Assembly: GCA_000165345.1 (NCBI GenBank)
Contig: CM000433.1
Span: 864,001 to 928,000, forward strand
Direction: 5' to 3'
Length of the DNA: 64,000 bases
Part shown: in pieces, positions 1,809-60,425 of the stretch
Numbering within the stretch: position 1 is the first letter of the stretch
Layout: every line of letters begins with the position of its first letter
Position numbers and translations under genes: made by a program
Notes under the pieces: generated by a model
Told to the model about the DNA's origin: nothing
Seen by the model: only the letters and a program-made list of their open reading frames with translations
The model's database searches: none

Positions 1809-2910
<1,102 letters not shown>

Positions 2911-3091
2911 GAACTTTTGTAAAAATCTAAAAACTGAAACAATTAATGATAATACTATTTTTCGACTAAAAAGAGTTTAATAACAGTGCAGACAATGAAA
3001 GTAACCCGTAATATTAAAAAAATCCTATAAAATTGTTTAATTCAAATTAACTTGTTTATACATAATTTTCTTTCTTGCAATTGTGTGTGCG

Positions 3092-3136
3092 TGGCGCCAA
3101 TCAGAATTATTTCTATACCGATACCACGTTTGGCGG
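3092..3136. promoter_or_regulatory. Bipartite E2F-like element (TGGCGCCAA ... TTTGGCGGC) upstream of gene 3266
   Basis: gTGGCGCCAAtcagaattatttctataccgataccacgTTTGGCGGCaac. It also contains a TATACCGATACC half of the ATACCGG motif. Confidence 0.5.
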
Positions 3137-3265
3137 CAACAGCTATCAATAAAAAAAAAAAGGAAGAGATTGCTAATATATAGATCAGCTTTTGACACAG
3201 TATAAAGTAAAAGAATATTTGTTTTTCAGATTATAATAATTTTATGTATATTGTTTCTATTCTGA

Positions 3266-3706
3266 ATGAAAATGGGAAGTAATGATTTTAAGACAGGAAA
3301 ACATAAACAAAATAGTCTTTTTAATGAAACAGTCAGAGAAATAAGAAAATTAGTATATCCTCATTTGGATAAGTTTCAACGCCAACAATATGATAATGCT
3401 AGGGCAAAAGTTTTAGGTATAAAACAAAAAAAGTCTCAAAAGATGCCTTTACCAGAATTAATTTCTCGTCAAAAAGCTACCAAGAGACATATTGATAAAA
3501 GAAAGCAATTAGAAGAGGAATTAGATGTTAAATTGCATATTGGTGATAAGGCTAATAGATTTGAAGCAGAAAAGGATATTAAAAATCGTAAGAAAAATAA
3601 AATTGAGAAGAGAAACATGTCTACAAGTTTAAGTGGAAAAGGATTTTCTGAAAAATCGGGAGTTGTTTATGTAGGCAAAAACATTGTTAAGAGAAGAAAA
3701 CATTGA
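3266..3706 (+). CDS. Hypothetical Lys/Arg-rich basic protein, possibly nucleolar or ribosome-biogenesis related
   Basis: 146-aa ORF with an ATG start and a TGA stop. The sequence is highly basic (KRKQLEEELDVKLHIGDKANRFEAEKDIKNRKKNKIEKR ... VGKNIVKRRKH). I recognise no specific family. Confidence 0.45.
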   Translation: MKMGSNDFKTGKHKQNSLFNETVREIRKLVYPHLDKFQRQQYDNARAKVLGIKQKKSQKMPLPELISRQKATKRHIDKRKQLEEELDVKLHIGDKANRFEAEKDIKNRKKNKIEKRNMSTSLSGKGFSEKSGVVYVGKNIVKRRKH

Positions 3707-3829
3707 ATATCAATATAAATAATGAGTAGACATCTCATAGTATTATTATTATTTTTAAATTATATTATATTAGAATAGTATTGCTATTTAAATAATTTTT
3801 ATTTCTATCTTATATACTACTAACTATTA

Positions 3830-5694: not shown

Positions 5695-6004
5695 TATTTA
5701 TAAATTTACTGCCAACAATATATAACTTTGAAATAAAAGTAATTGTTCTTTTAAACCAACTTAAATCATATAATATATAATCTAACTTTTTATTTAACGA
5801 GCTTATTTCCAAAAACAATAGATTAATTTATAGTTGTATTAATAGTGTAAATACTGCTTCTATTGCTAATAATACGTTCACAAGTCTAATTATTAATATT
5901 CTACTGTTCTTTTCTCTCCTCGTTCAATTTCTTGTTTTCTTGATTTTTTTCTTCTCTCCACTAAATAATGTCAAAATATTACAATATTTCATCTGCATTT
6001 CCCA

Positions 6005-26700: not shown

Positions 26701-27308
26701 GTTTCTCAAAGAATTCTAATAAAGAGTCCATTGATTTTTTGTTGAGTTTATTGGATTGAATTAAATTATTACAAGATTTTATATCTAAGTCTTTTGGTTT
26801 GTTTTTATTACATATAGTATCAGTTCCAATATTGAAATTTATTATATAGTCCCTCGCATTAGCCAGTATTTCATTTAATTCAAAGTTAGTATTTGAATGA
26901 GATACTTGTGTTTCTGAAATCCTTGTTATTGTAATTTTATCTTTTAGTACAGCAATTACATCTTTAAAATCACCAATATTTTTAATTCCATGTACTCCAG
27001 GACATCTTCCAAGCCTACAAATGCATTCATCAGAAACCCCACACAATATTGATGATATTCTTGTAATGCATTGGTTTGAAACAAGTTTATTGTAAGTTGC
27101 TAAATATGTTCGAAGATAGAAAAAAAAAATAATCAGATTTTTGTTTAATTAATTTTCAAATATTCTAAATTCTCTGTTATTCAGTCAACTTACCTAGAAT
27201 CTTCTTTAAAAACTCAATTAATCGAATATTTTTAATAATTTGAGCCTGGTATGTATTCAATTTGTTTCTTTGATTTATTAAGTCATCCGTTCTTTCTCTT
27301 TTGAGCAT
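23737..27308 (-). CDS. DEXH-box ATP-dependent helicase of the Hrq1/YprA(MrfA) family with a C-terminal DUF1998-type Cys-rich zinc module. Four exons: complement(join(23737..24050,24123..24545,24625..27099,27194..27308)).
   Basis: The core ORF 24593..27046 has Walker A TSTSSGKSMCYLLP, motif II LLVIDEAHIY (DEAH) and helicase-C motif VI TQQFGRCGRD. Its M at 27046 is a TTG. An upstream exon MLKRERTDDLINQRNKLNTYQAQIIKNIRLIEFLKKIL- joins through a GTAAGT donor at 27193 and acceptor tttag ending 27100, in phase 1, giving -ATYNKLVSNQCITRISSILCGVSDECICRLGRCPGVHG. Downstream, a GTAGGT donor at 24624 and acceptor tatag ending 24546 join to ORF 24094..24468. A GTAAGT donor at 24122 and acceptor ttttag ending 24051 join to ORF 23737..23955. 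All phases check, for 1108 codons in total. The C-terminal Cys cluster is CNINDISCECPD ... CNCKNGCLNCGF. Confidence 0.75.
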
Positions 27309-41803: not shown

Positions 41804-42563
41804 GATTAACTCTTTTAATTGACTACATCGTATTATCTTCTAGTTATCTTCTTTATGCAAACAAGTATAGCTTATTTTAACTGTAATTGTCTTTTACATT
41901 ATTAATTGTTGTGTGTAATTTTTTAAATCCATAAGAAATCAATCTGGCGCCAATGTTTCATTGATTCATTCCAATTGAAATGAAGTACGGGGTTAAAAAA
42001 AAAAAGCTTATTCTAATTTAAAAAACTCTTTAAATTAAAATGAAAGAAATCTTTGGATTATTAATAGTAAGTTAAAAAAATAGAGTGCATATTTTTTGGC
42101 TACTCCATTTCCCTCTCTTTATTTCTTTACTAAGTAATAAATATCATTTTTAAGAGGGGAAATTGCATGCAAAGATAATTAATTAACTCTTAATGAAAAT
42201 TCTCATTTTGATCAAATATACGAAGATAATAGCATGTAAGCTGAGTACAGTATTTGCATTAGTTAAACAAATGCCACCTGAGACGCCATGGGACACTGTT
42301 TTTTCTATTATAAGAAGCCAATTTTTTGCTGTAAGTTGAGACCATTGTAAATACTGATTAAGAAACCCAGATTAATTACATGTAAAAATTTAACACAAAT
42401 CCATTAAACTAATTGACTCAAAGTGGGGGTTCACAATTTTTCAGTTCTTAATTTTTATATTTTTTGTTCAAATGCAAATATGTAAGTTAATTGATCTTTA
42501 TTATATATCATTTTAATACTTTAATATATTCTTACTTTTTATTTATAATTATAAAGTTAAGAA

Positions 42564-43679
42564 TCAATAATCCATAAAGTCTAAATATGATTCAGTAAAA
42601 TTTTCTTTGTTAGATTTAACAATTATTTCATTAGAAATAGTAAAGTTTAATCCTGTAACAATATTTACTTCATTATCATAAAAATATTTTAATTCTTTAA
42701 CTTGACCCAAAGGAACTCCTACTGTGAAGTTCGACTCCAAAAAATCCAAAGTAACTAAAGCTGGGGAATACATTAGATATGCAGGAATATGTTTGATATT
42801 TGGGTAAACAACTATAGGAGTACTGCTAAAATGCTTTACTAGAAATTCCAATGCGGGAGGAAAAGGAACTACATCGTCTTTCATTCCCCAGAAGAAGATT
42901 ATTTTAAAAGTATTTTCGTATTTGGATAATCTTTCAAAATCCAAATGTCTGTCAAATAAGTTGCCATCTCCGCCTGATTTAATATATGTTGAGAACATTT
43001 GGTGAAAAACGTTCGTAGTGGCTTTTTTTTCTTCTTTAGTTTGTTTTCCCAATTTAACATATCCCAATTTGGAGGCGCAATAAAATCCACATCTAAACAC
43101 TCTTTTAGAATTGTGAATGTTCTTAATGGCACTAACAAGAGAAGAATTTGATAATCTGTATAATTTTGGAAAATCATATTTTGTCATTATTCCAGGTGGG
43201 CACATTGGTATTAAGTTACTAATATGATCCGGGTGTTCTAATGCATAATTGATAATGATTAATCCTCCCATTGAAACACCTAATAATGAAATCTTCTCTA
43301 CAGCTTTATTATCACTATCAACCCACCCAACATGTTTAAGCAATTCATTTAATTGATCAACAAATCTTTTTTGTGAGAAAAAACCAGGAAGTTTCCATTC
43401 AGTGTTAGCATGTCCTAATAAATCATAGGTTAAAACTTGATAACCAGTATGAGAAAATATACACCTCCAATTATCAAATTGGGTTGAAGCTGCTAACAAA
43501 CCATGTACCATTACAATTCTTTTTTTTTGTTCTTCTTTAGTTATAGTATAAAAAGTTCTTCCGGATTTCAAATCTGCAAAATCAGATTTAATTACACAGG
43601 AGGAGCCTTGATAGAAGCAAAGTGTAATAAAACAGATTAATGTGATTACGTATTTCAAGTTCATTTTTGCCAAATTCAA
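42564..43679 (-). CDS. Secreted alpha/beta-hydrolase fold esterase or lipase
   Basis: Signal peptide MNLAKMNLKYVITLICFITLCFYQGSS. The HG oxyanion motif reads VMVHGLLAAS. The nucleophile elbow G-x-S-x-G reads LLGVSMGGLII. Length is 371 aa. Confidence 0.7.
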   Translation of the reverse strand: MNLAKMNLKYVITLICFITLCFYQGSSCVIKSDFADLKSGRTFYTITKEEQKKRIVMVHGLLAASTQFDNWRCIFSHTGYQVLTYDLLGHANTEWKLPGFFSQKRFVDQLNELLKHVGWVDSDNKAVEKISLLGVSMGGLIIINYALEHPDHISNLIPMCPPGIMTKYDFPKLYRLSNSSLVSAIKNIHNSKRVFRCGFYCASKLGYVKLGKQTKEEKKATTNVFHQMFSTYIKSGGDGNLFDRHLDFERLSKYENTFKIIFFWGMKDDVVPFPPALEFLVKHFSSTPIVVYPNIKHIPAYLMYSPALVTLDFLESNFTVGVPLGQVKELKYFYDNEVNIVTGLNFTISNEIIVKSNKENFTESYLDFMDY

Positions 43680-45286
43680 GACCTTAATTGATTTTTTAAT
43701 ATATTTACTTAATTATATACTTTGAATCTAAATGCAGGACCAAATAACTAAATACAAAAACTTTAGGAAATTAAAAAAAGCTAATAAAGGAGTATTATTA
43801 GAATTTCTTTCCACTAAATTTATATGGTTGCAAAAAGTAGAAAACAAGTATCGGAGAAGCCCGCCAAAGCTATCTTTTTCTATGTAATTCGTGAAATTTA
43901 ATATTTACAAAATATTACAAGGCAAATATTTTACTTTTTTCAAATAAAGTTATTTTTTCAATATTAAGAATTAGAGTTACTTAGTCTCATTACCCAATAG
44001 AGATTAAACAATAAGGATGTTTTATTTTGTTTTTCTTTCAAAAATACTATCGGTTTTTTTTTTTCTTATGGGAAAAGAATTAATTTGTAATTAATTAAGC
44101 CTTTCTAACTCTTTGAAAATTGAAAGATAATACACGAAAATATTTGTTATTATTTAAAAGTTGAGAGATGTAATATTGCTTTTGAATATTCTAATAATAT
44201 ACTTAGTAACTAAATAAATGAGCAGATTATGTTTTTAAGTTATTATGATAGTTAATAGAAAATATTTTGTAATTTTTCTTGTTTAAAACTACTACATTAT
44301 TGTTTTTATTAATATTTCTATTTTTAGATTTATCAAGCATAGAATGACTTTTTTTTTTGTAATAATCTAGTTAAATTGAGTTAAACACAACACACAAGAT
44401 ATTCCTAACCTTTTGAAAATACTGGAATTGGATTCAAATATATTTTTTCCTAATTTTTTTCATTTTTTTTTTTTTTTTTTTTTGCAATAATATGCAAAGT
44501 TAAAATTTATATTTTTTTTTACTTATATATAGCGGTAAAAAAAAATTGTATTACGTGTTTGCATGAATGTACTTTACCGCCAAATGTCATGCTTAGAGTA
44601 ACTCATGCATCGCGACAACGCGTAAAATAAAGTACCAGGATAAATAAAGTAATAGGAAAAGGTAATAAAAAGCAGCATAATTAAATGGAATAAAAGGTAG
44701 AATTGAGATCAAAAAAAAGCATTAGGAAAAGACAAGAAAAATTAGTATTGGAAAAAAAAAAAATTACTTTTTGTTTTAATAAATCCGATTTTAAGCATTA
44801 ATTAAGTAATAATTAAGAAGAGAGTATAAAAGATTAGGTGATCTTTGGAGGAATTACGACAAATTAAGTTGAGAAAACATTTTTGAAACTCTGATAAAAC
44901 GATCACATGAATATTGTAAATAATTAAATTGAACTATAAATATAAATAGTGAAAAAAAAGGTGCCTTGCTTCATATTACAATAAAGAATACTGATTAAGA
45001 CAAAAATTAATCACTAAATTCAATAGAAGAGAGATATTTAGTATATTTGAAGTAAAAACTTAAAATAAAGATTAATATAAATATATATATTATATATATA
45101 AATTTATATTTTTATATGTGCAGAACAGCATAAATAATAAGGTATATATAAATATATACTTAAATATTTTCATATTTATTTATATATTATATAGAGAGAT
45201 GCAAAATTCATTAGAAATTTCTACAGAGGAAGTTGGTATAATGAGAAATAATGGCTTTGTTACAGAAGAGGAACAGAATCACTTAA

Positions 45287-47303
45287 ATGAAAGTTTTGGG
45301 TTCGAGGAATGAAGAAAATATAGAGTTAACTGAGAATCAAAGAGTTATAAGAAATTCTCAAAATGAAGAAAACTCAAGTAATCTAGTTAATAGACAACAA
45401 AATAACTTGGAAGGTACAAGATTAATAAAATTATTGAGAAAATATGCAGAAAAAGTGCGTGAGTGTTTAATACAACTTGAATATAATTCAAGAGCACAAC
45501 TTCCATTAATCAAGTTTGTTCTGAGAATCTTCATTATCTTATCTTTAACAATTCTACCTCTAATTAACGAAATCCACTCAGTTACTCCTCTTTTGTCAGT
45601 TTTTCTAAGAGAAAGTGATTGGTTTCTAATTCCAATGTCAATGAATAAACATGCAATTAACAATGACTTGTTATTAAGAATAAATCAGCATGAATATAAT
45701 ATGTTATTACAAAAGAAAAACTATCAACAAAGAATTAACCATAGTATTTTTCCAGGATTATTGAATCCCTATGATGATAACGGACTTTTTTCACAGAATT
45801 TAAAACCAAAAAAGTCAAAAAATAACTCAAATGTGTGCATTAATAGGGATGCCCGCCTTTTGATTTCAAAAGAGACTAGTTTAAATTATGAGCATTTGTC
45901 ACTATTAGTACCGACTATTTGGTGTCCAATATCTAATTTGAATAATGAATTTAATCAAGTGATTTATAATACAAGAAGAGAAGGGCAGAGCAGAAAGGTC
46001 AAGATATTATATATGAACAAGGATCAAAATACACGAAATAATATTCTGGGATTAACTTCTTTGAAGATGCATAAAAATACATATAGATATAGACCAACCA
46101 AAATTTTTAAGATTATCTCTACTTCTTTTGTAATTATAAGATGGTTTATGTTAATTTCAAGAATGGTTATGCAGCTTTGGAGTTTTAATACATTTTTTCC
46201 AAACACTGGAAATAGTAATAATATTAATAGTATTGCACAATTTCAGTTTATCCAAGAATTTAAGTCATTGGTTTCTTTTAGCATCTTCTATATTTGGTCA
46301 TTATCATGTGTATACTTATTATTTGGGCTTACAACCAGTAAATGCAGTATTTTTCCAAAAATTGCAATACATGAGAAAGTACAATGGCTACTTTGGAATT
46401 TGTGTACTAATTACTACAATTTGTTTCTATGCTACTAGGTTACCATACTTTGACTATCAAGAAGACTCTAATAATTCAAACTCTTCTGGTTCTAGTAGTT
46501 CTGTAAATAATAATAATAATAATCAATTAGAAGAAGAAAATTATCGCTTAAAGAAAAGGAAAATTTTTATCCAACATATCCTCTCAGTGATTTCTTGTTG
46601 TGGATTTGGATTTTCATTAAGTGGTAGTGTCCTTTTACTATCTACAAGAATTACTAGTCCTTGGGTTAATTCTTGCTTTATTACAATTATCTCACAATCT
46701 TTAGACCTCCTATTAAGAGGTTATTTGGGGCTTATTATTGATCATCATAGCTTTGAAGAAAAAAAGATCAGATATTATAAATATGTATTTCCTTCATACC
46801 TTTTAAAAGATGAAGAGAAGATCCATTGCAATAATAATGGCCAAAGAGAGTGGGTTGTAAAGTGTAACTATAACTCCCAACCTCCTCCTTTAATCTTTAA
46901 GCATTCTTTTATTTCAATCAGTTTAACCAAAATATCATCCACATTCTTTTCACTTAATAACTTCTCTAATAATGAAGAACAAACAGATTCTCAATCAAAT
47001 AATGCTTCTCAAACAACTAATTGTATGATATGTTATGAAAATCCAAGTAATATAGTTTTTTCTCCATGTTTACATAGTGGAATATGCGATAATTGTATAG
47101 ATGAACTAATGAAGTGGACAGTATGTAAATTAAAGAAAATTCCATGCTGTCACCTTTGCCGTTCACCTATTGAAATTGCATGGCAACTTAATCCTAATGA
47201 ATCCAATTCTAATGAAAATAATTACTTTTCTGAGAAATGCACTGAAGTTATTTATCCCAAGTTACAAATTTATGATGATTCTAATGAAAAGAGCAACTTA
47301 TAA
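45287..47303 (+). CDS. Multi-pass membrane protein with a C-terminal C3HC4 RING finger, a putative membrane E3 ubiquitin ligase. It is interrupted by an apparent +1 frame discontinuity near 46230..46440. It is a paralogue of 50342..52534.
   Basis: Two overlapping ORFs, 45287..46438 (frame 2, TM-rich) and 46233..47303 (frame 0), cover a span about the size of the intact paralogue. The C-terminal RING reads CMICYENPSNIVFSPCLHSGICDNCIDELMKWTVCKLKKIPCCHLCRSPI. It parallels the paralogue CNICFLDFDSIIIFSPCGHGGVCLECLGDYISNNFKLKQHPKCHICREDI. I could not find a canonical intron that restores the frame. Confidence 0.55.
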
Positions 47304-47618
47304 AATTCAGAATCATTTATACTAATTTTATTTATAATTATACTTCTTTTTTCATATACTAATATTATTTATCAAATAAGTCAAGAATTACTATATTTTA
47401 TTAATCAAGGGACAGATATAAAAAAAATAAAAACTGAGCATAAAGCTGTTCGTCATTTTTTTTTATTAATAATAATATTAAATTATAATTTACCAATATA
47501 TACTTTTTTCCAAATTCAATTATTTTTTTTTTTTCTTTATTATTTATTGGTATTAACACTTTCTCATTTACTTAATATTATTATTTCCACATAAAAAATT
47601 TCCCAACTAGTAATTTTA

Positions 47619-47670
47619 ATACCGGCATTTAAAAAATGACGTGTGTAATATTTAACAAATTTTGCATGCA
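47619..47670. promoter_or_regulatory. Composite element ATACCGGCATTT-N4-AATGACGTGTGTAA plus TTGCATGCA, in a convergent 3-prime/3-prime intergenic region
   Basis: taATACCGGCATTTaaaaAATGACGTGTGTAAtatttaacaaatTTTGCATGCAac. Its partner at 27403..27429 has the same order and spacing. Confidence 0.5.
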
Positions 47671-47693
47671 ACTTTTAAAGAAAATCAGAATTT

Positions 47694-49430
47694 TTATGGA
47701 ATTGCAAAAATATGTATAGATTGGTCCTTATGTAAGCATTTTGGTGATTGTCTGTTTTTCTTCTTCATTTTATCTGAAACTGTTACAATCATATTATCAG
47801 AAATGAAAGAAACTCCTTCAACGTTACAATATTTAAAGTCACAAACATGGTCTCTTGGGAAATAATAGACCCGCCCATTGGGAAGTAGTTGAATCTTATC
47901 AGGATCCAAATATTCTCCGTCTCCATAATCTATTTCTCCAATCCATATACTTGAGTCTTCCTGTGAAGTTATTGCTACTTTATTACCTCTTACATCAATT
48001 GATGAGTAATCTTGAAAATTAGCTTCTTTAGGAATGTTAATCATCCTAACTGATTTCCATATGCATTTTGATTTTAAACTATTCATATCACTATTAATTG
48101 TATCCCCAGTTGTTAATTCTGTTGTTTTATTTATATATTCCTTCTTCATTAAAATGAGTCTTCCATTTCCATATTCTTCTCCTTTCATTTCTCCCATACA
48201 AAAATTGCCTTCGCAAAGTCCCAATAAATAAAAATCACCATTTCGCGTTCTTAGTCCTATTGCTCCCTCAAATCCTTTGTTATCAAAATCAAACTTATGT
48301 TCTGCAGTGCATGTTTCTAAAACTTCATATGACTCAACATTATTCACCTTTACTAATGCTAATTCAATAATATGTGAATGATAATGCCTAGAAGAATTAT
48401 GATTTTCGTCTTTTAAGTTCTTTGAAAAATCTTTATATAATTTTAATTCTTCTAAATCATGTGGTATTGATTCTCTGATTACAAATAAATGCCCTGTAAT
48501 ATCATCCCTTACAATTGCTTCCCACTGTGAATCCTCAGTATTTGGATCAGTTCCTAATAAAAGTGTATTAATATCCAAAGGATTTCCACCTGATGTTGTT
48601 GTTTGCATATTTAATAGTTTATTTGAATGTGAAAAAGGAGTTAAGCTTAATCCAAATTTTCCAATAGTCCAAGAATTATCACAAACTACCCACATTTCTT
48701 CATTAAAAACTTTAACATCACTTGCTTCAAATTTTCTTATATTCAAAGTATCTTTGGGTAAGGCAAAATATGAAAGTTCATAAACCAGTTTTAATACTTT
48801 CTTTGTGTAATCCTTGTCATTACATATATCATTTTCTGCTGCTCTTTTATTTATACCATAAGTGTTATAATGACTTCCAAATACTGAATTCACTACATCT
48901 AACGTTGTATTTCCTCCTAAATTGATAACATCTTTAATTATATGATCATTATCTTTCTTAGTTACATTGCCATTAATATCTATTACTGAGCTTCTATTTG
49001 TCACTCTTTCACTATCCCCTAAAATTAATGAACCTGTTTTATTTTGTTCCATATTTGACATTTGAGTTGAATTTACTATTTGTTTCACATTTTTATTCTC
49101 ATAATTATTATAAGCTCTTCCCTCATGTTTCTTCTTTAAAAGTAGAGCATTTTCAAGCATTTCCTTTCTCAATTCTATTCTATTTTTAACTGGTAATTTT
49201 ATTAGTACTAGTAAGCTAATAAAAGCAGCCAATATAACTAAAAATCTTAATATAGATGAAAACTTCTTATTACCTAAATTAAAATACTCATTAAAGAGAT
49301 TATTACTGACATTTCTATTATTAGTATTGGAATTTTGATTATCTGAAATATTAAAGTAGTTATTACTAAATCTTCCCAATGAAATATAATCACTTTCAAT
49401 TTTGTTATCAAAGTTATTATACATATCCAT
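47694..49430 (-). CDS. Type II membrane protein (N-terminal anchor, large lumenal or extracellular domain), hypothetical
   Basis: 578-aa ORF. It has a single hydrophobic segment SILRFLVILAAFISLLVLI after a 50-residue N-terminus. It carries many N-glycosylation sequons and scattered Cys pairs. No recognisable catalytic motif. Confidence 0.5.
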   Translation of the reverse strand: MDMYNNFDNKIESDYISLGRFSNNYFNISDNQNSNTNNRNVSNNLFNEYFNLGNKKFSSILRFLVILAAFISLLVLIKLPVKNRIELRKEMLENALLLKKKHEGRAYNNYENKNVKQIVNSTQMSNMEQNKTGSLILGDSERVTNRSSVIDINGNVTKKDNDHIIKDVINLGGNTTLDVVNSVFGSHYNTYGINKRAAENDICNDKDYTKKVLKLVYELSYFALPKDTLNIRKFEASDVKVFNEEMWVVCDNSWTIGKFGLSLTPFSHSNKLLNMQTTTSGGNPLDINTLLLGTDPNTEDSQWEAIVRDDITGHLFVIRESIPHDLEELKLYKDFSKNLKDENHNSSRHYHSHIIELALVKVNNVESYEVLETCTAEHKFDFDNKGFEGAIGLRTRNGDFYLLGLCEGNFCMGEMKGEEYGNGRLILMKKEYINKTTELTTGDTINSDMNSLKSKCIWKSVRMINIPKEANFQDYSSIDVRGNKVAITSQEDSSIWIGEIDYGDGEYLDPDKIQLLPNGRVYYFPRDHVCDFKYCNVEGVSFISDNMIVTVSDKMKKKNRQSPKCLHKDQSIHIFAIP

Positions 49431-49900
49431 AGCTTTCTGTTTTACTTCTACTACTATTTTATGTAATTAATATTATTCTTTTTAAATTTCATGAAATGAT
49501 GCCAATTAAATTATTTATCTATGTTAAATCCGTTTAAATTTAAGAAATTATATAACTTGAATTGATATAACCCTTTAATTGTATAGGCACACACACATTT
49601 ATTAATATTTAAATGATCATTTAGCTTGAATTTAAAAAAAAACAAACATTAATATTTTTGATCTATTCGCAAACTTTTTTTTTTATTTTGCATATTTGCA
49701 TATAATCACATTTTCCCCTCATTTTTTTGATTATCCTACTCAAAAACAAATAGAAAAACTTAGATTAATCATAAAGACACTAACACAACCTGAAAACTAT
49801 CTAAAATACTAGCTATGCGCACTATGATCAATCATATATTATCTTATTTATATTCAATTTAACTTTTATATGGTATCGAGTGAACAAAAATTATTCCAAT

Positions 49901-49952
49901 ATTGCCGCCAAAACAGCCTCATGTACATGTGACTTTGGCGGTAAAATTGCCT
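49901..49952. promoter_or_regulatory. Inverted E2F-like half sites (TTGCCGCCAAAA N20 TTTGGCGGTAAAATTGCC) upstream of the RING-ligase paralogue 50342
   Basis: aTTGCCGCCAAAAcagcctcatgtacatgtgacTTTGGCGGtaaaattgcc. The outer ATTGCC/GGCAAT arms extend the palindrome. Confidence 0.5.
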
Positions 49953-50341
49953 GGTCAAAGGGTGCATATATTTAAATTAAATTGATCAAGACTCACAAAT
50001 ATAAAATGGGTAAACAGTGAAATAGGTGTCAGTTTTTGTTTTTAAAAAATTGGGGAAAAAGAACTTATAATATTATTTTTTTTTGGTTCATTAGTAAGAT
50101 TGATAAATTAATAATTTATAGAGATCTTTTTTCTCTCATTCTAATTTAATAAAATTCAAGTGAAAATAATAGCAATTTACAAAAAGGATCAAAGTTATTT
50201 TACGTTAAAATAATTAAGATGAAAAATATAATAAAAATATGTATAACCGTATTTTAATTATATGCTCAGTAAATTAGAAAATTGAAGTATTTTTTTCTGA
50301 ATTCAACTAAATAATAAAAAAAAAGAATTTTTGGAGTTGAA

Positions 50342-52534
50342 ATGAGAAACGAAAATGGTATTGCTAATTCTAGTCAAAAGCTAACCTTAGGCAAACATGT
50401 TTTGCGCGCCACTTTGATTCTCACAATATTACTACCATTTATCTTGGAGATATATTATTTGATACCTAATTTTGTTTCGTTTTATTCAGGAAAAGAATGG
50501 GTAAGAGTATTACTTGATGAAAACCAAAATAATGATTTGAGAACAATAAGCAAATCAAACTCAACAGAAAGCAATGTAATGGATAGGATGGCAGTAGATA
50601 AGAATGACAATATATTGATAATGTTAATCAAGAATCCAATTTCTCACATAGTAATTCAAGATGTGTTTTTGGATAAGAGTGTGTCAGAAAATAGTTTGAA
50701 AAAAAGTATAAGAATACCAAAAACAAGGGGAGTAAAGAATTATTCTTCAAGAAGTAAAAAAGAATTAAGTGGAGATAGACTTTTAGTAAGAAAAGATAAT
50801 TGTAACTGCCCAGCATTGGAAAATTCATTTTCAAATATAGTAGAGAATGAAAATGGCGAATTTTATTCATTAATGCTTGATGGTCAAAATAGTGTGAATA
50901 ATCCAATATTAATACAGGTGATATCTCTAATATTATTATTGTTTAGATGGGTCATATTATTAATGTATATAGTGGCTCAGCTTTTTCTTCCAATAAAAGC
51001 TGTAAGACAGATAGTAAACAAGAAGTTATTAAGGTCTAGTGCAATATCAGTTTTTTATGTTACAAGTATATCTCTATCTTTAACCATAGTTGGTTTAGAA
51101 GGTAAAGATTGCATAAGTTGGTGGTTTCTTGGATCTTCTCCAGAATATATATTGTTGATACAAGTTTTTGTTTGGTTAATAGCTAGTGTTTGTATTTTTC
51201 TATATTTGGTTCAATACTTTTTAGAAATAGTTTTGAATGTATCTAGAAGATACAAATTGTTGAATGACTTCATAACAACATCTATTTTTATTCCAGCAGG
51301 ATTACTGATAATCGTTTCAATAAGCTTGTGTATTCTGGGAATAATTAAACCATGGATATTTATGGCTTGGCTAACAACAGCAGTAACTGAGTTTGAGAAA
51401 AATTTAAGAATATTAGCAAAAGTTTATGATGAAGAATTTCCATTAGAAGCAGAAACAAGTTGGAGTAGAAATTCTATTTTTTTCAATAGAACAAACAGTA
51501 ATAATGTCAGAGAAGAGCATAAAAATGAAATTAGCGTAGTAGAATTAAGAGAAGATTCCAATGATGATAAATCTGAAAAAATGAAAGAAAATAACTCAAA
51601 ATTAAATACTAGAAGAGAAAATGATATTTTAATAATACCCATTAGTAATTCATACTTTAAAATATTGGATTATAGCCTTGATAATTTTTGTACAAAGTTA
51701 TGTTTATGGTACATAACTCAGCATAATGAAGCAGATAACAAGCTAGTTTCTAGAATTGAGTTAGAGGAACATTCAAATAAGAACTCACTAAAAATATTCG
51801 AATTTTCAATAACAGATTTTGTTAGGAATTTGGATTTAGAGGAAAAAGGTATAGATAAAAATTCGTCAAGAATATGCCTAACAAAAGTTAAATCATCATC
51901 ATCAGACTCGACAGTTTCTAGAATCAATTCATTTCATACAGAAAATATGAGTGAAAATACAAATAGTCAATTTATTTGTAATATATGTTTCCTGGATTTT
52001 GATTCAATAATTATTTTTTCACCATGTGGGCATGGAGGTGTATGTTTAGAATGCCTTGGAGATTATATATCGAACAATTTCAAGTTAAAACAACATCCAA
52101 AATGCCACATATGTCGGGAAGATATTTCAAAAATGATAGAGATTCAAAAGGGTAAGGAACAAATTAGTCAAGATAAGTATATATTTGAAGAGGCAAGAAG
52201 CTTTGAGACAACTCTAAGCAATAAAGTGAATTCGATTAATGAAAATAATGTGAATGACATTCATTTAATTTCAAATACTAAATTAATTGCTGAAATTTCT
52301 TGTAATTCAAGAAATAGTAATTCCTCAAGTTATAGTAGAAGTTCCAGCTCTGTATCTAATCGAGATTCAAATTCAAGCATTATTACTCTTAAAATATCAA
52401 GAAAGAATTCAGATTTATGGTCACATCCACGTATTAAAGAATTTATTAGCGATAATGAAACTAATAAATTAAAAACTTGGGTTCGTAGTCATTTTACTCG
52501 ATTTTTTACTAATTCAAATAGAAGATTAAGCTAA
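50342..52534 (+). CDS. Multi-pass membrane protein with a C-terminal C3HC4 RING finger (putative membrane E3 ligase), the intact paralogue
   Basis: 730 aa in a single ORF from an ATG. It has at least 6 hydrophobic helices (for example VISLILLLFRWVILLMYIVAQLFL, ILLIQVFVWLIASVCIFLYLV and IFIPAGLLIIVSISLCILGII). The C-terminal RING reads CNICFLDFDSIIIFSPCGHGGVCLECLG...KCHICREDI. The tail is Ser-rich. Confidence 0.7.
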   Translation: MRNENGIANSSQKLTLGKHVLRATLILTILLPFILEIYYLIPNFVSFYSGKEWVRVLLDENQNNDLRTISKSNSTESNVMDRMAVDKNDNILIMLIKNPISHIVIQDVFLDKSVSENSLKKSIRIPKTRGVKNYSSRSKKELSGDRLLVRKDNCNCPALENSFSNIVENENGEFYSLMLDGQNSVNNPILIQVISLILLLFRWVILLMYIVAQLFLPIKAVRQIVNKKLLRSSAISVFYVTSISLSLTIVGLEGKDCISWWFLGSSPEYILLIQVFVWLIASVCIFLYLVQYFLEIVLNVSRRYKLLNDFITTSIFIPAGLLIIVSISLCILGIIKPWIFMAWLTTAVTEFEKNLRILAKVYDEEFPLEAETSWSRNSIFFNRTNSNNVREEHKNEISVVELREDSNDDKSEKMKENNSKLNTRRENDILIIPISNSYFKILDYSLDNFCTKLCLWYITQHNEADNKLVSRIELEEHSNKNSLKIFEFSITDFVRNLDLEEKGIDKNSSRICLTKVKSSSSDSTVSRINSFHTENMSENTNSQFICNICFLDFDSIIIFSPCGHGGVCLECLGDYISNNFKLKQHPKCHICREDISKMIEIQKGKEQISQDKYIFEEARSFETTLSNKVNSINENNVNDIHLISNTKLIAEISCNSRNSNSSSYSRSSSSVSNRDSNSSIITLKISRKNSDLWSHPRIKEFISDNETNKLKTWVRSHFTRFFTNSNRRLS

Positions 52535-53061
52535 AATAGTAATTATTATAATTTTTATAATTTCTTTTATTTTCCCTCCCCTCATGCATTTATTTGCATG
52601 GCTTACATGCAAATAATTCTTTCCACAACAAGCTCCCGCCATACGTGTAAAATACCGGTATCTAAAATTATTGTAAATAATACACACGTAATACGAAAAA
52701 AATAATTTTAGGGAATTAAAAAATTTGATTCCCTATATGAATTTCTTTTTTTTTAAATAAATTATTCAAGACGAATTTCAAAGAATATTCTTGAGGAATT
52801 TTATACAAATTATAAAGAAACCAATGAAAATAATTAAATTCATATAAAGTTTAATTTAAGGAAAAAAAAATATACGATTTTTGGAATATTAATAGACTTG
52901 GATTTGATTCATGTTGTCTTATAACAGAGTTAAATGTGGTGATTATACATTAAGCTTTTATGATTCTAAGTAAACCTTTTTTTATAGTTAGGTAAGAAAA
53001 AATTTAGCCTTCAATTCAAGATTGTGGGGAAGTTTAAAATAAGAACCTCCATACCAAGAAG

Positions 53062-55095
53062 ATGAGTGCTAAGACTAATAATGTAAATAACAATATTAAT
53101 GACAAAGACGAAATAAGTAATAGTTATGTTGATTTAAAAAATGATGAACAAGGCTCTGATATTCAAGATGAGCCTTTTAATATAAGCAATTTAATATCAG
53201 TGTTGCGTTTTAATTTAAATAATGAAAATGCAAGTAAAGAGAAAATATTGAGCCAAATATACAATTTAATGAATAAAAGAATGCCAATAAAGTATTCTAC
53301 TGTACAAAGAAAGACTAAAGCCAAGGGGTTTGTTACAAGTGAAGATAGATTACGAGGTAAACTTTATAATGATCATTTGAGAAATAAGTCTAAAGAAATC
53401 AACAAAAATCACCATAAAGAAATTCAAGAAAAATCTGCAGACCCTGATTCAGCTAATGAAAGTATTTCAAATAATAATAAAAGTCCTACCAATACTATAA
53501 GAATTACATCCCCCAAAATATCTATAATTAATAAAAATGATATGAAAAATAAGCAAATTAACATATTATTTGATTACATTCTATCAACACTTATCATATC
53601 TGATCAGATCAAAGTTAAATTGGATATATTAACATTACTGGAAGAACAGTATGAGACAATATTGGGAAACCCTGAACAAATTCTTTCTGAAAAAAAATGT
53701 TGGGAAAGATATAATACAACTTTTAATCTATTTGAACATATTATCGCAGCAAATTATAAAGCAATTGCAAATGAGTCAATTAATTTATTTGAAGCTAGTA
53801 CAGTCCTTTCTGGTTCAAATTCAATTTCCATTGATAATATTTACCAAGAATTAATCAACAATCCTAAATATTCAATTCCTATAGTATTACAATCTCAGAC
53901 TTTGGTTACTTTTACAAGTATTGCTCTCTGCTTGAATTTATTGGAAACTGCACCTTTCTGGTTTTCTAAGCTACTTTCTATATTGTTTATTATTTGCAAA
54001 GAAGAATCTATTAAAACACAAAAATCACATGATAGAAATCCTATATTATTCCAAAATTACTATTCAATCTTAAGAAGATATGCGATCGAGTGTCTTATTG
54101 AGATTAATAAGACTTATCCGTTGATTTTTTGTCCTCTGTTAGAAATCAATTTTATACCAAATCAGAATATTGAAAAAGTCAATATTGAAAATCAGGGTTT
54201 TGGCTTTATACAAAGAAATATTCATCCAAGTATTTGGCTAGATAATCTTGAAAAAGGATTCATTACAGATTGCAAGAACTTCAATAAGAATAATATTTAT
54301 AATGACCAATTCATTGAACTAATGATCAATATTATCATTACTTTAATCGTTAAAAATTATACAAAACAAACAGATATTACCAAAGTTATCAAGGAAAAGG
54401 AAAGATTTCTTACATATTTGGTGACTTATATTATGGAGAATTTGAAATCTATTTCATGCTGGAATTTACACAGTCGAATTTTATTCTTGAAAAAAATTAC
54501 AAAAACATTGTCAATACCTTCCAATATTTTGGAATCATCTCTTATACCTTTTTCATATTCATCCAGAATTCATATTTTATTTGAAATTTGTTTCTTTATA
54601 TTGGACGGTATTTCAAAAGAATCTTTCTCCAATGTATATCATCAGATTATTGGAATATTAAATAATTTTCATTTTCCTTTAACTTTTAGAATATATTCAT
54701 CCAAATGGATCCAATTTCTCATTTCGAACTATTCTGAAAAGTTAATTGAACAAACTAATAATCATCAAAATTATACTTTGGCTAAGTTTATTCACCATCT
54801 GTTAATACCAAAATGGTACGATTTTTGTAAAATCAAATACTTTAAATCCCTTATCATTCTTCAGCTTAAGTTCCAAAACGTTATTCAAAATACTAATGAC
54901 GAAGATTTTTTTGAGATTCTTTATCAATCTTTAAATACTTTGCAAGAATATATTATTATTAAAGCTCCTGTTGGTGCACATTCAATTTATTTAAAGCTAT
55001 TATTCAAAATTTCTATATTATTTGGAGTTAACCAACATATTTCTGATTTAATTGTTAAATATACATGCCATCCAAATTTCCCAAATATCATCTGA
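53062..55095 (+). CDS. Hypothetical large helical (HEAT/ARM-like) protein
   Basis: 677-aa ORF from ATG to TGA. The N-terminus is low-complexity and acidic. It is followed by long amphipathic helical segments. I recognise no family. Confidence 0.5.
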   Translation: MSAKTNNVNNNINDKDEISNSYVDLKNDEQGSDIQDEPFNISNLISVLRFNLNNENASKEKILSQIYNLMNKRMPIKYSTVQRKTKAKGFVTSEDRLRGKLYNDHLRNKSKEINKNHHKEIQEKSADPDSANESISNNNKSPTNTIRITSPKISIINKNDMKNKQINILFDYILSTLIISDQIKVKLDILTLLEEQYETILGNPEQILSEKKCWERYNTTFNLFEHIIAANYKAIANESINLFEASTVLSGSNSISIDNIYQELINNPKYSIPIVLQSQTLVTFTSIALCLNLLETAPFWFSKLLSILFIICKEESIKTQKSHDRNPILFQNYYSILRRYAIECLIEINKTYPLIFCPLLEINFIPNQNIEKVNIENQGFGFIQRNIHPSIWLDNLEKGFITDCKNFNKNNIYNDQFIELMINIIITLIVKNYTKQTDITKVIKEKERFLTYLVTYIMENLKSISCWNLHSRILFLKKITKTLSIPSNILESSLIPFSYSSRIHILFEICFFILDGISKESFSNVYHQIIGILNNFHFPLTFRIYSSKWIQFLISNYSEKLIEQTNNHQNYTLAKFIHHLLIPKWYDFCKIKYFKSLIILQLKFQNVIQNTNDEDFFEILYQSLNTLQEYIIIKAPVGAHSIYLKLLFKISILFGVNQHISDLIVKYTCHPNFPNII

Positions 55096-55377
55096 TCACA
55101 TAAATAATTCTATACAATTATTACATTTAATATCAAGTTTATTCATCAAACCAGAGACAATTTGTAAGTTTATATTAATTATTTATTTTAATATTATGGA
55201 CTAATTAACTCATGAATTTTCAATATTTTATTTTCAAAAAAAATTAATATAGTGAACATATTCTACTTTTATTTGAAACTTTCCTGAGTCATATCAAAAC
55301 TTTGAATAATCCAAGAGATATTGATCCATTTCTTATGGTATTGATTTATTTATCGAAGAGACTTTAGATTCACAGAA

Positions 55378-56811
55378 ATGGGAAATCATGCAGTAATTTC
55401 AGATTTGATCAATTCATTATTTTATATTCCAAAAGTATTTCTTGAAAAGATTCAAAAACCTGTACTTAAATGGATTTATATTAATAAAGTTTTTACAGTA
55501 AGTTTATTAACTATTGTTATTTTTATTTTAACAAAATTTTAGGTTTGTTTGTCAATAATAACAAATAATATGAATAATTATAATGTAATTTACTTGCTAA
55601 ATAATTTATTTGGTTATATTAAAAGTCAATTAAAAGTTTATGATACTCAATTATTGGACTCAATAAATGAAATAGAATGTTCAATGAATTGTATGAGCTT
55701 GAGAACTATTCATGGTTTATTTGAGATAGAAGAATATAAGCAATGTAAAGAGAATTTAAACAATTTAGAACATATTTCAAAACAAAGAGAAAGTAAATTG
55801 GAAGAGAGGCTTCAAACAGAAAATGTGAATAAAGAACTTTATAAAATTCGATTAGATGCATATAAACAGTTTAGAAGACAAATATATGGTTTGAGAGATG
55901 ATTCATTTTCTATTTTCTCAAAGAATAAGCAACATAATACTTTAATATTACCATTCCAAATTAAATATCTCGAGATTGATGAAGAGCAAAGTTGTTTATA
56001 TGGAATAAAATTAAATTTTAAATCAAGTAATGATTCTTTAGGAATTGATCCAGTTTATATTCCATTCTTAAAACCTCAAAATATTCAAGAATTAGAGAAA
56101 GAAGATATTGAAGAAATGGTGATTAGCAAATACCTAGAAGAAGAAAACTCTAGAGTGATAAATTTGAATAATAATATTGTTTTTCTTTTGTTAATTGTAA
56201 AGGTTAAATTTCCAATTCCAGGAAAATTACAAATTGATATGGAATTCAATGATAAATTCGGTCAAACAATTTATGATAAACTTGACAGTATTCAAATCTC
56301 CTTTCAAGATTACTTTCTTCCTTCTCCAAATGAAGATTGGATTTTAAAATGTTATAAAGCTCTCAGTTTGAGACCATTAGAGTTAGAATCTGAAACATCA
56401 AAACATAAAAGTCAATTAGAAACTCCAGAAATGGTGAATACATGTAAACTTTTGGATATATCATCGAATTTAGTATTAAGAAATATCAATAAGCATTTAC
56501 GTACTTTTGAAATAAATGGAAATGAATTACTTTCTGTGATTAATGAAAAAATTAATATTAAGGAAGATTTTGATTTTAAACATGATTTGTTAATTCATCA
56601 AATAGAACTTAAGAAACAAAACTTTATTGAGGATTTACAAGTTCAAATTAGCTATAGATGGTTTTGTATTCACTTATTACCAAAATATTATTTAATAATT
56701 CAGTTTTCTATCACTAATAAGTCATCAATAGTCAGAATTTACACGGATTTCCCTGAGATTCTTTCTCATTGTGATGATTTTTTTGATTCTTGGTTATCAT
56801 TATCACCATAA
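55378..56811 (+). CDS. Hypothetical protein with two exons, join(55378..55497,55543..56811). It may instead be the 3-prime part of the upstream gene.
   Basis: ORF 55549..56811 opens at a TTG directly after acceptor ttttag ending 55542. An upstream exon from the ATG at 55378 (MGNHAVISDLINSLFYIPKVFLEKIQKPVLKWIYINKVFT) ends at a GTAAGT donor at 55498, in phase 0. It continues as VCLSIITNN.... No recognisable domain. Confidence 0.45.
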
Positions 56812-56869
56812 TTGTTTTAATTAATGTAATTTAAACAAAAAAACATATAAATTTAATAAATGGAGAATT

Positions 56870-56901
56870 CTGCATGCAATAAAATGCATGCAGTGCATGT
56901 A
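56870..56901. promoter_or_regulatory. Two TGCATGCA sites plus GTGCATGT in the 230-bp convergent region between 55378..56811 and CWC25
   Basis: tcTGCATGCAataaaATGCATGCAGTGCATGTaactg. Confidence 0.45.
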
Positions 56902-57041
56902 ACTGTAACAAGTGAAGCTAGTGGTAATAATTTATTATTAAAATACAAAAAAGTATATATTTAATGAATCAAGAAAACAAGAAAAAATAAATCTAAAACC
57001 TTTAAGTTTATATAATTTGTATACCTGAATTATTATGAAGT

Positions 57042-58254
57042 TCAATTTTTCATAAACTTCATTCTTTCTTCTAAAGAAGAAATTTGTTTTTGATTGATTT
57101 TATTCCTCATTTCATGCAAATATTCACGATGTTTGGCGGGCTCTTTATTCGAAATATTACTTTTAGCATTAAATTTCTTAATTCTTTCATTTTGAGTGAG
57201 TTTTCCATAATTAATCATTTTTTGAAGTTTTTCTTCTCTATCTGATTTTGAAAGATGATGGTTATTTTTATTTCTTCTATTTACATGAGTGTGAATATTG
57301 TATTTTTTTCTTGAATCATTCTGATGTTTGTAATTATTTGAAAAATAGGGTTCTGATGGTCTCTCAGGTGATCTTGAGAGAGAACTTTTTCTAAACTTTA
57401 TATTTTTTTCTGAAGTTGTTAATTTCAAATTTGCTTGGCAAAATTCATCACGCTTTTTTTTATAATCATCAACTATTTTCATATGTTTGAGTTCCATTTG
57501 CTTAATAATTAGTAAAGGATCTTCTTTTAGTCTGTTGATGATTTCTTTTTCTTCCAAGTCAAAATCTGCCTCCAGATTTTCTTGGTTTTGAAATTTTGTT
57601 TCACCCAATATTTTGGATGTATTTTCTGGAATATTAGCACCTGAAATAGATTAAATACAAAGTAAATTAATAACTAAATTTTAATTTATTTGGATGTGTG
57701 GGCTTCTTATTAATATTTTGTATTAATTTCTTAGTAAAATGAGTCAATATTTAAGTATTTATTGATATTCTTTTTTTATTTTTTTTTTTTTTAAATGAAA
57801 AAGATGAGTAATTTGTCAAATCAATATTTAAAATTGAAGTTTTGAGAATTTAAATAAAAACCATACTTATTAATTCATTGGTTCCGGAAATGTATATTTA
57901 TTGATTTTCTCTTCAGAAAAAGTGAATATTAATTTAAAAAGAAAAAAAAATTGAGTATTAAATTTGGCTTGAAGCTGAAGTTTTTTTAATTTAACATTTT
58001 AATTATAGCCCCTTAATAACATTCAAATATTATCATATTTCTATCATTTCTATTATTAATATCAATTTATTACTTTAATTATTAAAAAAAAACAGCTCTA
58101 TTTTACCCCCAAGAAAAAAATAGTCTTAACCAATATCATTTTGCAGAACCCCATCTTTTAAATTAAAGAACTTACCTAGTAAATACTTTTCATTGTCATA
58201 TTCTAACAAAGCTTTTGGGTCATAAAGAAACTCCAATCTCTCCTTATTACTCAT
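57042..58254 (-). CDS. CWC25: Pre-mRNA-splicing factor CWC25. Two exons, complement(join(57042..57640,58176..58254)), with a 535-nt intron.
   Basis: ORF 57042..57608 starts at a TTG. The upstream exon MSNKERLEFLYDPKALLEYDNEKYLL- ends at a GTAAGT donor at 58175 (minus strand) and joins acceptor tctatttcag ending 57641, in phase 1, giving -GANIPENTSKILGETKF.... Conserved CWC25 blocks are LEFLYDP...DEYLLG (human LDWMYQGP...DEYLLGRP) and INRLKEDPLLIIKQME (human SKIREDPLFIIRKKE). The C-terminus is basic. Confidence 0.7.
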
Positions 58255-58342
58255 TAATTCTACCCAAAATTATTCTCCTCAATCTAGTCAAAAATTCTAT
58301 TCTTACGTATTTATTTTAAAATTCAAAACAAAAAAGTTGGCA

Positions 58343-58357
58343 TTGGCGCGCGCGCCA
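58343..58357. promoter_or_regulatory. Perfect 14-bp GC palindrome TGGCGCGCGCGCCA (an extended E2F-like site) in the divergent CWC25/58530 promoter
   Basis: gttggcatTGGCGCGCGCGCCAtctag is read directly. It is 100% G+C over 12 bp, in a locus with about 22% G+C. Confidence 0.55.
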
Positions 58358-58529
58358 TCTAGTTTATGACAAATTTATTTTAGTCATTATAATTAACTAA
58401 ATGAGGAAATTTAAGGGAAAATCAAGGAGGAAAAGAAATAACTAGATAATAAAAGGTTAAACTTTATGCACAATATAAATTATCTGAATAAAGTTATAAA
58501 GTAAATGGAGAAGAAACAGTGAAAAGAAA

Positions 58530-60155
58530 GTGGAGGAAATAATGGAAGCTTTTCCAAATAATTGGAAATTTTTCAAGGTAAATTTTGACGAAACAAAATG
58601 GGACTTCCTTGTAGATGGAGGAATGCACTCCGTATTCTTAACAACTTCCAACATAAAGCTGAGTTTCAATAATTGTCTCCGATATAATCAATTTTATTTT
58701 TCCGAGAAGAACAACTCTGCAATTATTTCTATTTTTAATGATCAAGAAAATCAAGTATTTGATAATTTTGAAGTTGTTATGAGTTATTTTGTTCTAAAGG
58801 TTGAAAAGAAGCCTACAAATGTTATTGAAGATATAATAAATAAGATTCTCTTTGAATTTGGACTTAACAAAACTCAATTATCCAGATGTATTATTTCACC
58901 AAGAGTTCCTCTTCTATTTATTCAAAAAAATTTATTTCGGCTTGGATGGTTTGAACCAAATCTATCTTTAATTAATATTCCATTTTTTCCATTAAGTGCA
59001 TGCAATATACACACAAAGTGCGCGCCCCATTTTTTTAATTTAGAATTTAAGCCTAAATGTGTATTACCATTATTAATTGGTGATTTTACACTTTACAGAG
59101 TTCTTCAGAAATTGATTTTAGATAATTCTTGGATAATATGTTCTTCTGGTCTAAGTCAGAAAAAAATTGACCAAGAGTTTGGCTTATTATTAAGATTTAA
59201 AAGATTATGTGGGGTAAAAAATATACCTTGCCAGATTTCTATACAAAAATTATCAAAAGATGACAATTTTGAAAATATATACTCTCCTATTCATTTATTC
59301 TTTTCTAAATCAAAAGATCAAATTTTTTCTGAATTCTTAAAAGCATTAAAAATCTCTGGAAAAGTTATACAAAATAATTCAATTATTAACTTCAATCATT
59401 TATTAAAAAATTCTAACTTTACAGAAATTATTCAAAATGAAATCCCTATATTTTCTGACTCTCTTTCACATTTTTCACAAATTTTTCACAAGTTAATATT
59501 ATGTCAAACTTTTTGTGCTGGACAACAAATTTTGGCTTATTATTTATTTATTGTTCTTAAATTTATTATACCTATTAATGAGATAAAGAAATTAATTAAT
59601 AATCAAACTGTCAATATTTCTACTGTAATGGAAGAGCTATCATCAATTTCTTCAAGTTTAATGAATATTGAATTTTATCATGATAAAGCTGTTGAGAATT
59701 TTCAATTTGGATTATTATATTTAACAAAACTTATTTTTCATATTAAAAAGAATTCTTTATATAAAAATCAATTCAATAAAAATATCAAGGAGGTAATAGA
59801 TAATGATGTAGAATTCAGCTATGCTATTAAAAATACAACTCTATGGCTTTCTAAATATTTCTTTGGAAGATCTGTATGTGATTGTTCATTAATTATAGTA
59901 GTTCTATATACAAATCAAAATAGTTTAACTCCTAATTATTCTGACTTTAAACTAATTAAGACATTCAGTACAGATCACAAATTGAATCTAAATTATTCTA
60001 AAGTTTGGGCTCAAATTAAGATAATTGATATTTCCAATAAACCTTTGGAAAAAATTGATTTTTGGAAGTCTCAATTCTTATACTTAGTTAAGAAGTTACT
60101 AATCAATTATAAAAAGACAAAAAAAGCGAAATTAAAGGATATGGAAATACTTTAA
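58530..60155 (+). CDS. Hypothetical protein, Leu/Ile/Phe-rich and helical
   Basis: 541-aa ORF from ATG to TAA. It shares a 275-bp divergent promoter region with CWC25, which contains the 14-bp palindrome TGGCGCGCGCGCCA. No recognisable domain. Confidence 0.5.
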   Translation: MEEIMEAFPNNWKFFKVNFDETKWDFLVDGGMHSVFLTTSNIKLSFNNCLRYNQFYFSEKNNSAIISIFNDQENQVFDNFEVVMSYFVLKVEKKPTNVIEDIINKILFEFGLNKTQLSRCIISPRVPLLFIQKNLFRLGWFEPNLSLINIPFFPLSACNIHTKCAPHFFNLEFKPKCVLPLLIGDFTLYRVLQKLILDNSWIICSSGLSQKKIDQEFGLLLRFKRLCGVKNIPCQISIQKLSKDDNFENIYSPIHLFFSKSKDQIFSEFLKALKISGKVIQNNSIINFNHLLKNSNFTEIIQNEIPIFSDSLSHFSQIFHKLILCQTFCAGQQILAYYLFIVLKFIIPINEIKKLINNQTVNISTVMEELSSISSSLMNIEFYHDKAVENFQFGLLYLTKLIFHIKKNSLYKNQFNKNIKEVIDNDVEFSYAIKNTTLWLSKYFFGRSVCDCSLIIVVLYTNQNSLTPNYSDFKLIKTFSTDHKLNLNYSKVWAQIKIIDISNKPLEKIDFWKSQFLYLVKKLLINYKKTKKAKLKDMEIL

Positions 60156-60425
60156 AATCATTATTTTTAACAATTAGTATATTTTTTTTTATATTAATAG
60201 TAATTTTAAGTACTTTATCGGATATAATTCAAGTTTTCTAATCTTTTCCATCATCCTCCGTATTATTGCATATATTGATTTTGCAATTTATTATATAACT
60301 TATATTCGATTTCAAAATCTGAGGAGAAATCGAACTCCTTGTGTATTATTATTAGATTCTCATTCACATATCTTTAGTAATTAACCAATGAATTTGAGGT
60401 GATGAAAACCTTTATAGAAGATCCT

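Follow-up and report, generated by a model that had tools for sequence, protein, structure and literature searches.

The described proteins that come closest to the gene pair considered here are multi-pass membrane ubiquitin ligases (E3s) with a RING domain. In Hrd1 and gp78 a cytosolic RING follows the last helix of a multi-pass membrane protein, and human RNF26, a protein of the endoplasmic reticulum, has several N-terminal transmembrane (TM) helices followed by a cytosolic C-terminal RING, presumably of the same Pfam class (zf-C3HC4_3) as those of the present pair. Dimerization is common among RINGs of this class. In other RING E3s the isoleucine of the C-x-I-C motif is the usual position of contact with the ubiquitin-conjugating enzyme (E2) and the arginine after the last cysteine is known as the "linchpin"; the RINGs of the IAP proteins have such an arginine. 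In Cryptosporidium parvum, the homologs of HRD1 and HRD1-like proteins are cgd7_4170, cgd1_1790, and cgd8_2560 (Ponts et al., 2008). Here we analyze a 64,000-nucleotide stretch (hereafter, the window; contig CM000433.1, positions 864,001 to 928,000) of the 2004 Sanger assembly of C. parvum Iowa II (GCA_000165345.1), in which two genes for membrane proteins with a RING, gene 1 (upstream, RING1) and gene 2 (downstream, RING2), lie close together and the first appears to be frameshifted. Taking both parts of the reading jointly, we consider it highly probable that the locus comprises two intact membrane RING genes that diverged anciently and that the break in gene 1 is an error in the 2004 reference.

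In the window gene 1 is represented by two overlapping open reading frames (ORFs) in different frames of the forward strand, 45287..46438 (383 residues) and 46233..47303 (356 residues). An earlier note on this DNA had described these as one gene split at a single point; the overlapping ORFs are indeed there, but the breaks number two. The region 42342..60534 was compared using MAFFT with the matching loci from seven other C. parvum assemblies, three of them chromosome-level NCBI sequences (CP044418.1, CP029784.1, and CM109965.1) and four of them Logan read-set assemblies; GCA_015245375.1, which is among the assemblies compared, derives from the same strain as the window. Six of the seven loci cover gene 1 (the seventh begins too late) and in all six it is a single ORF of 700 residues, or 727 residues from an upstream start, with no intron. 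The window differs from them by an extra base at two positions (Table 1) and splits the gene among three frames (45199-45297, 45299-46396, and 46398-47303). The frame break that had been noticed is the one at 46397, while that at 45298, near the 5′ end, had been overlooked. Gene 1 in fact starts at the ATG at 45199; that at 45287 is out of frame for its first few codons. Removal of the bases at 45298 and 46397 from 45199..47303 produces a 2103-nucleotide coding sequence whose translation is identical to that of positions 2860-4962 of comparison locus L002, which is the 700-residue protein QOY41795.1. The earlier note had itself held that the frameshift would lose its interest if re-sequencing restored a single ORF, and a single ORF is what all six assemblies contain.

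The annotation of the 2004 assembly carries the imprint of the second insertion. The gene 1 model of that year (EAK87546.1, 310 residues), labeled "protein with 3 transmembrane domains, ring domain," corresponds exactly to the third frame of the window read from its first ATG, including the out-of-frame start MRKYNGYFG. As EAK87546.1 can be translated only from a sequence that has the insertion at 46397, the window must be the 2004 Iowa II assembly, and the truncation of gene 1 by the 2004 annotators was a consequence of this frameshift. Among public annotations, it is the only model of gene 1 to reflect the frameshift.

It is conceivable that the insertions were real mutations of the parasite stock sequenced in 2004, in which case gene 1 would have been a pseudogene or dispensable in that stock. 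They do stand in the deposited sequence, a truncated protein was built on them, and laboratory Iowa lines are known to differ slightly, with 143 variants genome-wide between the ATCC and BGF lines, of which 108 are indels (PMC8744675). However, both insertions are missing from the later assemblies of the same strain as well as from the independent read-set assemblies that cover the gene, and gene 1 is strongly conserved throughout the genus. In addition, the region compared contains five single-base insertions private to the window (45298, 46397, 55080, 55135, and 55151), and these, together with a garbled stretch of 13 bases, fall within ~10 kb, a density that when scaled roughly to the 9.1-Mb genome is far above the number of variants between the Iowa lines. 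All five have the same form, in which the neighboring base is doubled (GG to GGG, A to AA, CC to CCC, A to AA, and C to CC, respectively), and such a signature suggests that bases were called wrongly in a systematic manner where the reads of the 2004 assembly were of low quality. The density of the private insertions and their uniform type lead us to attribute them to base-calling rather than to biology, and we find real mutation in the 2004 stock very improbable. Isaza et al. (2015; PMC4637869) had already attributed split ORFs to regions of low quality in the C. parvum Iowa assembly. The CpBGF genome paper gives only a few coding differences between its reads and the 2004 assembly, one of them being "cgd3_1180 (2 frameshifts)" (PMC12179316); two frameshifts would fit gene 1, but we could not link this identifier to the locus and do not rely on it. 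Judged from the sequences compared, we take the frameshift of gene 1 to be an error of base calling or of assembly in the 2004 Iowa II reference, and not a sign of the decay that the earlier note had suggested.

The same note had also raised the possibility of a non-canonical splice, to which programmed ribosomal frameshifting may be added as another means by which the frames of gene 1 could be bridged. Many formal GT..AG pairs of suitable length are present around 46246-46498 and would restore the ORF, but every such intron that we enumerated deletes residues of TM3/TM4 that are invariant in ten species, while removal of a single base brings those residues back exactly. The 46397 insertion sits between codons W399 and I400; among ten Cryptosporidium orthologs W399 never varies, and I400 and C401 come close to invariance. 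No intron is needed in the other assemblies, and two independent recoding events in just one assembly of a strain would be implausible. We therefore rejected the splicing candidates and give bridging of either kind practically no credence.

An error in the reference is also consistent with the state of gene 1 in other members of the genus. Its orthologs are uninterrupted, with lengths of 684-843 residues, in C. hominis, C. tyzzeri, C. meleagridis, C. ubiquitum, C. canis, C. felis, C. ryanae, C. bovis, C. serpentis, and C. muris, and the ortholog in the chipmunk genotype is likewise intact. With orthologs intact in these ten species and the insertions not reproduced in the other assemblies, a pseudogene or decaying duplicate was rejected. 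GenBank and UniProt already contain annotations of both genes. Public records of gene 1 are QOY41795.1 (CPATCC_002394), WKS78018.1, WRK32507.1, and KAL5368794.1. Gene 2, which had correctly been described as a single intact ORF of 730 residues, is 100% identical to EAK87548.1/QOY41793.1 (CPATCC_002392), the name given to the identical C. parvum protein being [quoted passage not shown] and the identity of its orthologs ranges from 91% (C. meleagridis) down to 38% (C. bovis and C. ryanae).

The arrangement of the locus is also conserved. The order hydrolase (-), RING1 (+), gene of unknown function (-), RING2 (+), and large gene (+) is found in C. parvum, C. bovis, and C. muris, with the single difference that in C. 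muris an additional gene (Mpv17/PMP22) separates the hydrolase from RING1. The downstream RING gene of C. muris is the ortholog of gene 2 (E 4e-64), and the locus tags cubi_02044/cubi_02042 of C. ubiquitum and FG379_000053/FG379_000051 imply the same spacing. The middle gene keeps its position and orientation (563 residues in C. bovis and 685 in C. muris); its product seems to be anchored in the membrane and to have a large C-terminal domain. As the earlier note had stated, the two RING genes are on the same strand and are separated by one gene unrelated to them (best BLASTP score of the middle gene, 25 bits). That note had regarded the pair as looking like the outcome of a local duplication with one copy either decaying or spliced in a non-canonical way. 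A recent duplication was rejected: C. bovis and C. muris each have both copies and the middle gene, and outside the RING the identity between the copies is only ~25%. The shared arrangement in these two species indicates that the duplication predates their divergence and that both copies were retained, and on this comparison the genes are probably ancient paralogs.

Both products carry a C-terminal C3HC4 RING, as had been recognized from the sequence alone, and both RINGs score above the Pfam gathering threshold of zf-C3HC4_3 (27 bits), which places them in this IAP/MUL1-like class. The pattern C-x-I-C...SPC-x-H...C-x2-C...C-x-(I/L)-C-R that had been noted in the pair is present and conserved in both families. 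The eight zinc ligands of gene 1 (C608, C611, C623, H625, C629, C632, C650, and C653) are invariant among ten orthologs and those of gene 2 (C546, C549, C562, H564, C568, C571, C588, and C591) among nine. Invariant too are the isoleucine of C-x-I-C and the arginine after the last cysteine, which are I610 and R654 in gene 1 and I548 and R592 in gene 2. The conservation of the zinc ligands, this isoleucine, and the linchpin arginine argues for catalytically competent E3s as the most likely, predicted function of both proteins. Compared with one another, the RINGs have 31% identity (52 bits, E 6e-11; profile-profile E 7e-11), whereas either RING against any solved RING reaches 26 bits at most, about half the score between RING1 and RING2. 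Each has a long loop of 16-17 residues between its sixth and seventh cysteines, ending K-L-K/R..P-x-C-H-x-C-R.

The two proteins also have a common order of elements: TM1, a loop of 150-170 residues, four strong hydrophobic segments, a weaker sixth helix, a spacer, the RING, and a tail. There are therefore five clear hydrophobic segments in each protein, and the at least six TM helices claimed in the earlier note are plausible only, as the sixth is the weaker one. In both proteins this sixth helix is amphipathic and begins (S/K)PW. A cytosolic RING and a cytosolic N-terminal extension of gene 1 would require an even number of spans, which favors six, an argument that depends on the sixth helix spanning the membrane. 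We infer a predicted topology of six spans in which the long loop, with its conserved cysteines, would be lumenal and the RING cytosolic. No Pfam family was detected for the TM1-TM3 fragment of gene 1, nor any beyond the RING in either full product. When a gene 1 profile from which the RING had been removed was searched against 1.84 billion representatives, just three clusters matched, all of them Cryptosporidium gene 1 orthologs, and at HMMER sensitivity the membrane domain of gene 1 thus appears to be restricted to the genus.

Between the last helix and the RING of gene 1, residues 523-585 (46767..46955) form a stretch of ~60 residues that hardly varies within the genus (YKYVFPxYLLKDEEKIxCNxNGQREWVVKC..NSxPPPLIFKHSFISI) and matches no Pfam family. 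It may represent a cytosolic domain peculiar to the family. At a comparable position gene 2 carries an invariant motif, IPISNSYFKILD.

Whether the two genes are paralogs along their full length was assessed outside the RING. By BLASTP, residues 96-417 of gene 1 and 9-293 of gene 2 are 25% identical over 329 colinear residues (E 1e-8 as a single comparison). As TM composition can inflate such scores, controls were run with decoys, for which gene 2 was shuffled in windows of 5, 10, or 20 residues; the C. parvum pair scored 42.4-42.7 bits and none of 500 locally shuffled decoys exceeded 30 bits. In hhalign comparisons of the RING-less profiles, TM1 gave a match of 42.3 (E 2.3e-4) against a maximum of 31.0 in 150 column-shuffled decoys, and a second match over TM2-TM3 was colinear with the first, if weak by itself. 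Several observations weigh against our interpretation of the locus. HMMER searches of profile against sequence with the RING removed did not separate the real sequences from locally shuffled decoys; BLASTP exceeded the decoys only for the pairs of C. parvum and C. muris, the pairs of five of the seven species failing to do so; and, in a search of the entire library at E ≤ 0.001, the RING-less gene 1 profile did not recover any gene 2 protein. AlphaFold2 models of both families, from alignments of 9-10 sequences, had a mean pLDDT (predicted local distance difference test) of 36 and 35.7 and were unusable. With regard to the frameshift, a real private mutation in the sequenced stock keeps a small probability.

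The first three of these observations are what would be expected if the proteins were unrelated polytopic proteins that gained similar RINGs, or if the RING alone had been copied. Such an origin does not readily account for the decoy-controlled matches of the C. parvum pair, the element order common to both proteins, the unusual loop and its K-L-K/R and P-x-C-H-x-C-R residues common to both RINGs, or the adjacency of the genes kept across the genus, and we deem it unlikely. Paralogy along the full length, which had been proposed in the earlier note, holds to the extent that a weak colinear similarity outside the RING beats decoys in C. parvum, but it is not recovered by HMMER or in most species pairs; on balance we regard full-length paralogy as likely, albeit unproven.

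The best reading of the pair is that of predicted genus-restricted polytopic RING E3 ligases. TM1 and a group of four to five more helices would anchor each protein in an endomembrane, with the loop after TM1 in the lumen. The RING, facing the cytosol, would bind two zinc ions and recruit a ubiquitin-charged E2, enabling the protein to ubiquitinate itself or neighboring membrane proteins. We found no functional study of either gene in the literature. A more speculative thought is that the RING pair, perhaps with the middle membrane protein, constitutes a Cryptosporidium-specific module, which might be a heterodimeric membrane E3 and might serve a compartment peculiar to the lineage, for example the parasite-host interface or secretory organelles. 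It is prompted by the conserved order of the three genes, the membrane domain of gene 1 lacking outside relatives, and the apparent competence of the RINGs, and we think it improbable at present.

Table 1. Positions of the features of the locus and of other genes within the window (numbered from its first base).
Feature	Position	Strand	Details
RING gene 1, true extent	45199..47303	+	700 residues after removal of two spurious bases
Extra G in gene 1	45298	+	GG to GGG, TTTTGGTTCG to TTTTGGGTTCG; private to the window, absent from 6/6 covering assemblies (MAFFT)
Gene 1 membrane region	45509..46733	+	Kyte-Doolittle scan; most conserved part of the gene 1 family
Gene 1 TM1	45509-45583	+	Kyte-Doolittle; followed by a loop of ~170 residues
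Gene 1 TM2-TM5	46103-46640	+	Kyte-Doolittle
2004 gene 1 model, EAK87546.1/XP_625561.1	46371..47303	+	310 residues; truncated by frameshift
Extra A in gene 1	46397	+	TGGATT to TGGAATT, TTGGATTTG to TTGGAATTTG; private to the window, absent from 6/6 covering assemblies (MAFFT)
Gene 1 weaker sixth helix	46659-46733	+	Kyte-Doolittle
Gene 1 C3HC4 RING	47022..47162	+	Residues 608-654; Pfam PF13920, 37.3 bits
Middle gene	47694..49430	-	578 residues; unrelated to the RING genes, no Pfam family
RING gene 2	50342..52534	+	Intact ORF of 730 residues; identical to EAK87548.1/QOY41793.1
Gene 2 TM region	50396-51415	+	Hydropathy
Gene 2 C3HC4 RING	51977..52117	+	Residues 546-592; Pfam PF13920, 34.6 bits
PRMT-type arginine methyltransferase	3830..5818	-	Also a weak C2H2 zinc-finger match below threshold
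Adaptin large subunit	20686..23574	+	Adaptin_N plus Alpha_adaptinC2
DEAD-box helicase	24593..27046	-	

The G+C content is ~25% across the window, in which long ORFs are closely packed, and other genes in it are of ordinary housekeeping types (PRMT-type arginine methyltransferase, adaptin large subunit, and DEAD-box helicase; Table 1). The next gene downstream of gene 2 (53062..55429) is an ORF of 677 residues in the window and of 700 residues in the other C. parvum assemblies. Within it are the private insertions of a C at 55080, an A at 55135, and a C at 55151, private substitutions at 54561, 55027, and 55429, and the garbled stretch, at 55355-55367; from these errors we infer that assembly error of the same type truncated the window model of this gene. 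In the IOWA-ATCC assembly the gene is fused with the following ORF (1204 residues), and the genes at the corresponding position encode 1264 residues in C. muris, where the gene runs off the locus, and 1133 residues in C. bovis.

These results carry a caution for users of the 2004 Iowa II reference, in that single-base insertion errors in it split or truncate genes, and apparent pseudogenes in that assembly consequently need to be checked against the newer telomere-to-telomere assemblies. The RING pair itself is a reasonable, if unremarkable, target for localization or knock-down in a parasite with few drug targets.

In comparison with the known ligases, the Hrd1/gp78 type, which the pair resembles in general layout, was rejected on two counts. 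The RINGs of that type are RING-H2 (C3H2C3), whereas those of the Cryptosporidium proteins are C3HC4, with a zf-RING_2 score of 18.7 against a threshold of 27.3; and neither protein has a Pfam family for its membrane domain, that of gene 1 having no relatives outside the genus at HMMER sensitivity. The HRD1-type genes that Ponts et al. (2008) assigned in C. parvum also lie elsewhere. Among solved structures the best RING matches were to MUL1/MAPL, CGRRF1, MYLIP/IDOL, the IAP proteins (BIRC2/3/7 and XIAP), and MEX3C, with E values from 8e-5 to 0.1. These RINGs share with the Cryptosporidium pair the C3HC4 spacing and the hydrophobic residue in C-x-[IV]-C, but they score just 16-26 bits, compared with the 52 bits between the two Cryptosporidium RINGs, which differ from them in the length of the loop between Cys6 and Cys7, in having histidine rather than proline after Cys7, and in their domain contexts. 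The overall architecture is like that of membrane ligases of the MUL1 or CGRRF1 type, which have a zf-C3HC4_3 RING. As for RNF26, the membrane region has no detectable homology to it in the search of 1.84 billion representatives with the RING-less gene 1 profile, and relative to RNF26 the Cryptosporidium proteins add the predicted lumenal loop after TM1 and long low-complexity tails. As no homology beyond the RING was found, we have not filed the proteins under the RNF26-, MUL1-, or CGRRF1-type families. RNF26 is nevertheless a plausible functional analog, by virtue of its similar layout, for a membrane-anchored E3 that would act on nearby proteins.

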